Positions 38,801 to 41,800 of a stretch of DNA of 64,000 nucleotides are shown here, piece after piece; the first letter of the stretch is position 1, and every line of letters begins with the position of its first letter. Origin of the DNA: Callorhinchus milii (taxonomy: Eukaryota); assembly GCF_018977255.1 (NCBI RefSeq), contig NW_024704742.1:86306001-86370000 (forward strand), in the 5' to 3' direction. The notes beneath the pieces are model-generated. The model saw nothing but the letters and a program-made list of their open reading frames with translations, did no database searches and had not been told where the DNA came from. The position numbers and the translations under genes are program-made.

Positions 38801-41800
38801 GGACTACTCTATATTAGCCTGTGGGGTAGGAGAATGGATGCCCGGATTGAATCATGATATGCACAACTTGTGCTGTGGGAGGCTCAGGATGTTGCCCTGC
38901 GTGAGGGGCGCTATTATTATAACCAATTCACGTGCCGCAAAACTTTTATTTGTGTGTGTATGTGTATCGGTAGGTGATCTCGTCGTGTTCAAACTTTGGT
39001 CATGGACTCTGGTCATAACTTTGGTCAAGTTATGAAGAATATGTGTAACTAGGCCAACACCTAACATTACAAATGTAAATAACACAAACAAGCAAGTACA
39101 AACAATAGCTGTTATGTTCAGTTTCTTAGTTGTTTGTGCATGCCTCTTGGCTGCTTCAATATCTCCCAGAATTTTTTTGTCTCTAGACTTAATGGAGAAG
39201 ATTAGAGCAACAAAACCAAAGCAGCACATGTTCATAAAATGGAGGCTGAAGGTAGACCAAATGGAGTAATTGCTCACTGACTTCATTTCTGCAGTGATGA
39301 TTGGGTTGAACATGCCAGGCTGCTCCATGACTGGGTACATTGGAGTGGTGGGCATGAATCAGTGGCAAAATACAGTTGCAAAAGAAAATTAAACAAATAT
39401 TCCAAGGCAAGTGCCTAAAATTGCCTTACCCATCAGTATATGTGGAGTAAGTCATTAACTCGATCAAAATAATTAAAACTGGCATTGTTTTACTGCTTTT
39501 GATGCTATTTTTGCATTAAGACCTAGTTCTGCACACTTTGTTCTACTGTGCAGGCAGCATGAAGAATGAAGCAGACCCAAGAAGTGTCTCAGGAAATGAT
39601 CTTCACTTGCCAGTATTGACGATCATAAAAGAAAGAAGTTGCATTTGTATAGCTCTTTCTCACATTGAAAAATCTCAAAATGCTTTACAGGTAATTATTG
39701 TGAAGTATAGTGACTCATTTTCAGGCAAGCCCAACAGCACTGGAATATGGACTTGAACTTGACCTTGAATTGCAGCAGCCAACAACTTCTACTTTGTTCA
39801 AACCAACCTTGAGTTTGCTAAAGTTTACTCAGTGAAGCCCATTTACAAGAAAACTTCTTCACAATGTCTTTTTTTGCTTGTTACCTTGGCTAATAGAAAA
39901 GTGCAGGCGCAATTTTTCTGCGGATTCCGATATAAACAGCACCTTTCACTATAAAGGCCTTCTGCTATAAACAGTACCATCTGCCATAAATCTGTAAAAA
40001 AATGAAGCTTCTTCGTCCCTGGGCCTCTGCGCGTTGCTACCAGCTGTTTACTCACCGCCACTACTGTGGGTAGGACGCCTCCCGATGTGCATGCAGTGCA
40101 CACGGGAAATGGCCTTCACTCCACTCCGAGGCCCCGCTGTTGTGATTGTCTGTGTGTGTCTCTCTCTCTCCTCTGGGTCTGTTGTGTGTGTGTGTCTCTC
40201 TCTCTCTCTGTTTGTGAGTGTGTTGGTCTCTCTCTCTGTGTCAGTGAGTGTATGTGTGTGTCTCTCTCTCTGTTTTTATCAATAAAATGAAAAAATGCAG
40301 GTTGGGAGTAACATGTACCTCAATAGCACCAATTACACACACCACCCTTGTATTTTTTTTTGCAAAATCTGCCATATTTCCCTGCAATTTCCTGCAAAAT
40401 TTGTGAAACTTCCCTCTAATTTTTGGCAAATATTTTTGTAATTTTTACTGACCCTGGATATTACTAATCTTTCTTCCCCTTTCCTCTCTCATTTATCTTT
40501 GGGTTCAATTTATTGTTATAAGATTAGTAAGAAAATTCCGTTCATAATCATTTGTTAAACTTTTCAAGGTCTAATTTCCATCCATCTTCAAGTTAACTTT
40601 CCATTGTCTCTTAAAGTAGAAATCCCTTTCACTTTCAGTAAAAACGTTAATGTCACTTTTCCAATTAGTGTTTTTTAGGATTTCAATTTATACAGTCACT
40701 GAAACAATTTCTAATACAGTAATAAAGCTACTCAAACATCACAATTATTGCAAACATTCAAAAAATGTTAAAGCAAAACTCAATTAAAATTTTAATTGGA
40801 CCTGCGAACAAAGTTGCATTTTATCACCCCAAAATGTCTTAAAGTTCATCATAGCAGTTACTCAAGTGCAGCCAATGTTTTTATAGCATGTTTCGCATAC
40901 TTAAATCCAATTGTCAATCATAATAATCTTTGCATTGATACAGTTTCTCATGTTGTTGAAATTTCTTGAAGCATTTCACAGGATTTAATCGCTAGAAACA
41001 TTTTTAATAGATGCATATGATTAGAATCCTTCATATCTAATAAAGTGCCTCTCACATTGGGAGGATGTCTGAAAGTTTATTTTTACAGAATTCACTGAGT
41101 TTGGGGCTTATATATTTTGTAAGTGAAGGAATATCGTACATCAAATGTGTCCAAGATTATGTGCAAAATATATCAGCACATCAAGAAATTAAATCCTGTG
41201 GTTTAGTGCTTAGAGCACTCGCCTCGCTAGAGAGAGATCTAAATTTGATTCCTCAGCAGTCTAAAACATTGGGCAGGTTTCCTTACTCCACTCGTCTCTG
41301 TTTACCTAGCAGTAAATAGGCACATGGTTGGCGGATTGCTTTTCCGGGGTAATAACCGTTCCAAATTTTTAAAAAAATAATAATTTGGTCACCTAATCAA
41401 TGACTGTTTGTGGCACACTGCTGTGCACAATTGGCTGGCGCGTTTCGCCCACAAAACAATCAATTCACTTTGCAGTATACTTTGTGAAGTGCTTTGAGAC
41501 GTCTAGAAGACGTGATAAGGCACTATATCAAATGCAAGACTTATTTTTCCTATTTACTGTAAATTCTAAGTGACTTTATAGGTGAATGCTGATGTCACCT
41601 TTCCTCATTCTCTCTCTAGCCTAGGATTTCAACTTTATTTTAACTGACATCCTTCCAAAGTTTTTTTTGGAAAAAGTAACATTTACATCCTTTTCATGCT
41701 TTTGTTTCATCTTCCTCCCAATTCCTACTATTCTTTTGAAGGTAGAGCAATGCTTTATTTGGCTAAATTCTGGCACTAAACTCCTGGTTGCATAATAGAA

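Follow-up and report, generated by a model that had tools for sequence, protein, structure and literature searches.

An intronless CD225 reading frame within SMC5

We analysed a 64,000-nucleotide window of the Callorhinchus milii genome (C1:86306001-86370000 of a 991.5-Mb assembly), in which a first-pass annotation had pointed to an intronless IFITM-like gene nested in an intron of SMC5. Positions given without a contig refer to this window. The open reading frame (ORF) occupies 38852..39355 on the minus strand and comprises 167 codons, with its ATG at 39355-39353 and its TGA at 38854-38852. The translation matched the Pfam CD225 profile (PF04505; cut-off 27.1 bits) with 70.2 bits and an E value of 1.6e-19, residues 28-92 corresponding to profile positions 3-66 of 68. 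The codons AAG TCT AGA GAC, which code for the KSRD motif of the family, stand uninterrupted at 39190-39179 on the minus strand.

The ORF is framed by two minus-strand SMC5 exons, at 47268..47390 upstream and 38337..38432 downstream, both of which were identified by a protein match to human SMC5 and by an RNA contig joint. Translation of 47268-47405 (minus) resembled residues 799-839 of human SMC5 (PDB 9lwi_I; E 3.7e-7), and that of 38334-38432 (minus) resembled residues 858-889 (E 2e-7). A contig joining 47268 to 38432 was found in four of four public RNA runs. Because this joint skips 38433-47267, with GT..AG borders on the minus strand, the interval is a real, single SMC5 intron with the coordinates proposed in the first-pass annotation, and the presence of the spliced joint in all four runs means that they contain RNA. 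The ORF is in sense orientation relative to SMC5. The 167-codon ORF, its strand, its CD225 pattern and its host intron are thus all confirmed.

Scanning the assembly with the CD225 profile gave 29 matches, namely 15 first halves, 13 second halves and a single whole domain. The unsplit match is this locus (profile positions 3-67), which at 71.8 bits was also the best-scoring of the 29 and is therefore not a chance match. It had been considered that all IFITMs of this lineage might be intronless; since the other 28 matches are half-domains split at the same place, they are not. In the five cluster genes of this family that were examined, all exon 1 sequences closed with a final K codon followed by a GT donor, and all exon 2 sequences began after AG with [S/T/A]RD.

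A probable parent gene with an intron on C17

The best protein match of the ORF in its own genome was at C17:2620155-2620325, which covers residues 1-57 with 67% amino acid identity, followed by a second C17 piece at 2621947-2622186, which covers residues 52-138 with 46% identity. The gene at this place, g5, is a two-exon member of an IFITM cluster (C17:2620074-2620322 and 2621962-2622141). By blastn, the copy in SMC5 and g5 agreed at 144/169 positions (85%) in exon 1 and 108/144 (75%) in exon 2, with 0 gaps. Their proteins are 63% identical over 103 residues and have FSLHFMN and GD-x-E-AA signatures in common. The gap-free stretch at 39046..39356 (minus, 311 nt) is colinear with g5 codons 28-130 and contains the former exon-exon junction AAG|TCT (K56|S57) at 39185..39190 (minus). 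At this junction g5 carries a GT..AG intron of 1639 nt (GTAACT...CTCAG), which is missing exactly there in the copy.

Similarity to g5 begins 1 nt before the ATG of the copy, which equals g5 codon 28, and fades out at an AATAAA (38945..38950, minus; AATAAC at the aligned place in g5). We found no g5 similarity in the flanks of the copy, and a search of the whole genome with the ORF DNA found nothing else that resembles it besides g5. As the similarity is confined to the mRNA part, from one nucleotide before the ATG to the AATAAA, the locus has the anatomy of a processed copy. In trees that also included three further cluster genes and 45 other IFITM-like proteins, the copy and g5 were sisters, with support in the Shimodaira-Hasegawa-like approximate likelihood ratio test (SH-aLRT) of 100 in a quick posterior mean site frequency (PMSF) tree and 99 in a tree of the core (LG+G4). 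The stem that carries both is long (0.70-1.27 in the two trees). On this sequence evidence, the ORF is very likely a processed copy of spliced g5 mRNA. The first-pass annotation had proposed an mRNA-derived copy from the contiguity of AAG TCT AGA GAC at the point where cluster genes have their intron, and this proposal has held up: the genome search uncovered an intron-containing parent, split exactly at K|SRD, and phylogeny places the copy beside it.

A candidate target-site duplication, TTTTGC..CAC.TGA at both ends of the copy, was rejected, as its score of 14 was reached by 217/2000 shuffles and 67/190 intron control pairs.

The ends of the copy and the predicted protein

Codons 1-103 of the copy run colinear with g5 codons 28-130 without an indel. 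The 39046..39356 stretch (minus) encodes the amphipathic helix/first hydrophobic segment, the CC pair, the SIKSRDKK loop and the second hydrophobic helix. An in-frame TGA precedes the ATG by 6 nt. After the second hydrophobic helix comes an imperfect 25-nt tandem duplication (38992..39027, minus), in which the 11-nt word TGACCAAAGTT occurs at 39027 and again at 39002. This stretch has a net gain of 19 nt over g5 and shifts the frame by +1, so that the frame has moved past the old stop, a TGA at 38989..38991 (minus) that aligns with the g5 stop and is now out of frame. The remainder of the ORF (38852..38988, minus) comes from the former 3' untranslated region (3'UTR) and the flanking intron: the last ~54 residues have a counterpart in no IFITM coding sequence, are predicted to be disordered, and are encoded by a frame that crosses the AATAAA into the flank as far as 38852. 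The C-terminus of g5 is short, stopping 13 residues past the last aligned codon. We also considered the tail as a repeat and rejected this, as 38852-39045 was not covered among the 40 best-scoring genome matches.

Hydropathy peaks of the translated copy are centred at residues 44-47 and 86-101. AlphaFold2, run with a 40-sequence alignment, predicted helices at 30-62 and 66-124, with a block-mean predicted local distance difference test (pLDDT) score of 83-93 over residues 31-120. The basic loop SIKSRDKK is followed by GDIEAA. The double cysteine C44-C45 is present, with C45 in a column conserved to at least 90%, and is a putative acylation site. On the S/N/T face of the amphipathic helix, the invariant S34 is kept, and S37 and L38 stand where the consensus has N. 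The GxxxG motif is not kept: the copy has G64-D-I-E-A68 and g5 has GDVEA, where the other cluster genes and the consensus have GDxxG. We take S34, S37 and L38 to correspond to S61, N64 and T65 of human IFITM3, and the alanine of GxxxA to G95. Read in this way, the copy differs from the human protein by an alanine at the G95 equivalent and by S and L at the N64 and T65 equivalents. By their sequences, g5 and the copy appear to be a divergent IFITM branch without the second glycine of GxxxG.

If translated, residues 1-113 would make a small two-helix protein of the IFITM type, with a short N-terminus and a C-terminal membrane helix. Membrane insertion of such a product is likely; antiviral action is possible and is the weakest step, because the g5/copy clade lacks the second GxxxG glycine. 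In a study of human IFITM3, restriction of virus entry depended on the amphipathic helix and on oligomerisation through GxxxG, chiefly its second glycine, and both G95L and S61A/N64A/T65A lose function (PMC7665892).

The named proteins among the top matches were IFITM1-, IFITM3-, IFITM5- and dispanin-A-2b-like. Outside this genome, the nearest named relatives are the shark 'dispanin subfamily A member 2b-like' proteins of Chiloscyllium and Hemiscyllium, at 45% identity; their resemblance is to g4, a canonical cluster member, rather than to the branch of g5 and the copy. A word-indexed ortholog search gave one match among 54 candidates, the public model of this locus itself, and no close orthologue. 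No orthologue with more than 50% identity in another species appeared among 1.84 billion representatives, a set whose 50% clustering could hide one. As a relative of known structure by sequence, the best PDB match, ATP-synthase gamma (E 0.2), was rejected as chance.

Possible constraint on the core

The comparison of the copy with g5 showed a sharp change at the end of the colinear stretch: there are 0 gaps in 311 aligned coding nucleotides versus 7 gap events in the next ~120 columns. If seven events fell at random over the 431 columns, the probability of all lying in the last 120 would be ~1e-4 by simple arithmetic. The 38 amino acid replacements between the copy and g5 had a mean BLOSUM62 score of +0.47, compared with -0.57 (sd 0.25) for random replacements, and none of 3000 simulations reached the observed value. 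A family hidden Markov model (HMM) built from 132 other IFITM-like proteins gave the copy 121.2 bits and g5 129.4 bits; since the model was made from hits to this protein, it may flatter the score of the copy, and g5 still scores higher. When g5 was given 30 random stop-free substitutions, its mean score fell to 94.2 (sd 9.1) and 0/400 replicates reached 121.2 bits; with 20 random substitutions 2.2% did so, and with 40 the mean was 82.8. The independent Pfam model, scored in its two halves, gave 25.5 and 31.4 bits for the copy and 31.4 and 31.8 bits for g5. In a 40-protein alignment, the copy kept 17 of the 19 columns that are invariant or at least 90% conserved. From these patterns we infer that, over much of the time since insertion, the core was probably subject to purifying selection that was relaxed but real.

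Transcripts and public gene models

In RNA run X1, a single gap-free contig of 1176 nt covers 38648-39823, and spliced SMC5 is present in the same run. Its depth over the ORF, 6.4, resembled that on other unique pieces of the intron (3-5), and in runs X2, X3 and X8 the bin 39188-39571 was uncovered; because contigs cannot rank expression, neither observation was used as evidence. The X1 contig departs from the assembly at 38822, 39584 and 39722, all outside the ORF; 0 mismatches in 504 ORF nucleotides versus 3 in 672 flanking nucleotides are too few to mean anything (chance ~0.19). A scan for interferon-responsive elements found no GAAANNGAAA motif and no gamma-activated sequence within 1 kb upstream, and its control failed, as no interferon-stimulated response element was found upstream of the five cluster genes either.

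Two public models overlap the ORF. The UniRef entry A0A4W3I811_CALMI (P0001) is a 128-residue protein in three minus-strand exons (~40230-40096, ~39275-39100 and ~38006-37875), the inner of which corresponds to residues 29-85 of the copy. The first of its junctions would require a GC donor, a start codon is lacking, and the SMC5 exon at 38337-38432 would be left out. The model looks like an annotation artefact. Its last piece lies in the next SMC5 intron, in or beside a SINE-like repeat. The second model, P0002, is a 77-residue fragment equal to residues 10-86. Neither is proof of expression, and both are better read as a warning to users of the annotation, being fragments or odd splice forms.

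Origin and present state of the copy

The account that we favour, and consider fairly probable, is an old g5 retrocopy whose core was kept as coding sequence under relaxed purifying selection and which later suffered a C-terminal frameshift. Spliced g5 mRNA would have been reverse-transcribed, most likely by the enzyme of a long interspersed nuclear element (LINE), and the cDNA inserted in sense orientation into the SMC5 intron, starting one base before the ATG of g5 codon 28 and ending at the AATAAA. The core would then have been kept as protein-coding under relaxed but real selection for much of its history. Later, the 25-nt duplication behind the second helix would have made the frame bypass the old stop, lengthening the protein by ~54 residues of non-coding origin. 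A translated product would be expected to behave like other IFITMs, which insert into membranes and change their order and fusion. That the copy has a coding function at present is a more tentative claim, which we hold to be slightly doubtful.

A number of observations weigh against a history of selection, and several of them favour the alternative of a dead retropseudogene that was never used, has drifted since insertion with its frame open by luck, and shows the frameshift as its first visible lesion. The ratio of nonsynonymous to synonymous substitution rates (dN/dS; pairwise Nei-Gojobori over 103 codons, copy versus g5) was 0.735 (dS 0.290, dN 0.213), with a bootstrap 95% interval of 0.40-1.48 that includes 1. 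The 61 nucleotide differences fall 23/17/21 at codon positions 1/2/3, a flat spread such as little or no constraint gives. The protein branch of the copy is three to four times that of g5 (0.40 versus 0.092 and 0.459 versus 0.148 in two trees); with synonymous change split evenly, dN/dS would be ~1.1 for the copy and ~0.36 for g5, branch-specific values that rest on branch lengths only. This asymmetry is unsure, because relative-rate counts were less lopsided: nucleotide changes on the copy and on g5 numbered 18:18, 24:11 and 14:16 against three outgroup paralogues, and over a 79-residue core 12 sites had changed on the copy, 8 on g5 and 9 could be assigned to neither. Gene conversion within the cluster could also create such asymmetry by shortening the branch of g5. 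An open frame by itself proves little, since random substitution at 30-40 changes left the 103 codons stop-free in 43-51% of trials. Two near-invariant residues are altered (D29N and L46F) where g5 keeps D and L. At its 5' end the copy is truncated relative to g5, whose frame reaches another ATG 27 codons further upstream, with no similarity there; at the other end the old stop was lost by the frameshift, and the tail has a block-mean pLDDT of 48-56 over residues 131-167. The context of the first ATG is weak, with T at -3 and C at +4 (Met10 has G at both positions), and nine further ATGs precede it in the 468 nt covered by the X1 contig. That contig is unspliced and unstranded, and is indistinguishable from SMC5 pre-mRNA; we found no promoter, poly(A) tail or separate transcript at the locus, the promoter scan being one without a working control. 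Many primate IFITM retrocopies are pseudogenes, with premature stops in 8 of the 25 tested (PMC10415907). However, drift since insertion would have to produce 311 coding nucleotides free of indels next to ~120 columns with seven gap events, replacements more conservative than in any of the simulations, a profile score that g5 lost in every replicate with 30 substitutions, and conservation at 17 of 19 constrained columns. These features count against a dead copy, which we regard as unlikely, albeit the most serious of the alternatives.

Two further explanations concern the RNA and the mode of duplication. The copy could serve as RNA only, either as a non-coding transcript or, within SMC5-sense transcripts, as an occasional cassette exon or alternative terminal exon; its sense orientation and AATAAA speak for this, as does the use of residues 29-85 as an internal exon in A0A4W3I811_CALMI, with an AG acceptor and a GT donor at the ends. 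This would be very improbable, given the defects of that model noted above, the unspliced state of the only long contig over the ORF, and the SMC5 joint that skips the whole intron in four of four runs (among 15 of the 546 joints, a scope that leaves room for rare ones). The locus might instead be no retrocopy but a DNA-level duplicate with precise intron loss, or an ancestral intronless CD225 gene. An A tract was looked for after the AATAAA and no poly(A) was found; with the rejected target-site duplication, neither hallmark of retroposition is demonstrable, although at 15-25% divergence their loss is expected. The resemblance to g5 stops at the limits of the mature mRNA, the parent is on another contig (C17 versus C1), the copy and g5 form a sister pair nested deep within the family (support 100 and 99), and all other CD225 loci of the genome are split at the same place, so that we consider this last explanation scarcely credible.

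Returning to the favoured account of an old retrocopy with a selected core, the first-pass annotation had called the gene intact and probably antiviral. The first term applies to the CD225 core, which is open and conservative, and not to the ends, as the copy is 5'-truncated relative to the longest frame of g5 and frameshifted at its C-terminus. The second is not upheld: dN/dS is indistinguishable from 1, no transcript can be separated from SMC5 pre-mRNA, and the second GxxxG glycine is an alanine. The suggestion that SMC5 and the IFITM copy pair as linked restriction factors gained no support beyond co-location, and primate IFITM retrogenes also lie in unrelated introns. The position within SMC5 is most likely accidental; it is in keeping with where IFITM retrocopies generally lie, and no functional link need be invoked. 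Nothing that we found ties the copy functionally to SMC5, and the co-location looks coincidental.

Comparison with known IFITM genes and retrocopies

Human IFITM3 has two exons, and IFITM processed pseudogenes occur in human and mouse (PMC3424830). The copy shares with human IFITM3 the CD225 domain, the double cysteine before the first hydrophobic segment, the basic loop and the C-terminal transmembrane helix. The human gene is split at K|SRD, whereas the copy is contiguous there, lacks a PPxY motif, and has a short N-terminus and a long C-terminal tail. The parent, g5, differs from the copy in possessing the intron, in reading 27 codons further at the N-terminus and in its short C-terminus.

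In PMC10415907, primate IFITM retrogenes and retropseudogenes are described as intronless, outside the cluster and in many cases within introns of unrelated genes, with hosts that include ATXN2, MLH1 and AKAP9; some frames are complete and some broken. Two macaque IFITM retrocopies are expressed as proteins with measurable but weakened antiviral activity (bioRxiv 10.64898/2026.06.11.731520). Like the shark copy, the primate IFITM3-derived copies (IFITM3P1-P6 and others, and macaque IFITM3-R1/R2) are mRNA-derived, intronless and outside the cluster. The primate copies are recent, while the shark copy has diverged from its parent by 15-25%, is truncated at the 5' end and is frameshifted at the C-terminus. 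Unlike them, it shows no poly(A) or target-site duplication and has a holocephalan host, and no second one was found in its genome. Our literature search found no report of an IFITM retrocopy in cartilaginous or other fishes. From primates, intronic IFITM retrogenes are already known, to which the shark copy adds a much older case.

If the copy is still used, IFITM enlargement by retroposition would have occurred at the base of jawed vertebrates as well as in primates, and structure-function work would gain a natural variant that combines GxxxA with a short N-terminus and a long C-terminal tail. A dead copy would still be a clean, datable processed pseudogene in a genome with few described. 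The strongest reading would be an ancient holocephalan IFITM retrogene that originated independently of those in primates and was kept by selection, with a new luminal tail of ~54 residues derived from its own 3'UTR, and transcribed within or together with SMC5. This we hold to be improbable; were it true, a chromosome-based and a membrane-based antiviral factor would share one transcription unit.

Repeats, cluster genes and neighbouring sequence

The first-pass annotation had noted LINE machinery close to the copy, and this was borne out: the SMC5 intron that holds the copy also contains, at 44403-46928 (minus), a LINE whose open frame of 841 residues includes a reverse-transcriptase domain (RVT_1, E 1.6e-36). 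Summed over contigs, the depth of the LINE sequence was very high in each of the four RNA runs. Another reverse-transcriptase piece, this one broken, is at 41621-42310 (minus).

Downstream of the copy and outside the gene, a repeat resembling a short interspersed nuclear element (SINE) at 38504..38676 has ~90% identity to many loci (6370 first-look candidates). Members of this family share a conserved 3' half and carry an (ATT)n tail, and they flank both the copy and its parent. Further copies are at 37517-37850 and 39626-39738 in the window, and at 4278-4454, 5198-5507 and 6588-6942 of L022. Since g5 and the copy are each followed by this repeat in like orientation, we considered it as carried-over 3'UTR. 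Only the common 3' half matches (85%); it was not counted as carried over because the family has thousands of copies and the match of the 3' half is no better than that to other L022 copies.

The canonical IFITM cluster, at C17:2575000-2637000, contains at least seven exon sets. Genes with paired exons are g1, g2, g4, g5 and g7, with exon 2 of g7 at 2636330-2636461; a lone exon 2 is at 2630004-2630150, and the opposite strand carries a fragment resembling exon 2 at 2598503-2598580. The g2 protein has a long proline/tyrosine-rich N-terminus. More CD225 gene pairs are on C25, C8, C10, C9 and C3.

In the alignment to human SMC5, the exon before the host intron extends to residue ~841 and the exon after it resumes at ~857; the RNA contigs contain no exon between 47268 and 38432. 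By this alignment, shark SMC5 seems to be without ~15 residues of the human coiled-coil arm at the 47268/38432 junction. Near the start of the window, an open frame at 2561-4129 (plus) encodes a TRPM tetramerisation domain (PF16519, E 1.3e-17). The frame probably represents the final large exon of a TRPM3-like gene, which fits the TRPM3-KLF9-SMC5 synteny named in the first-pass annotation.

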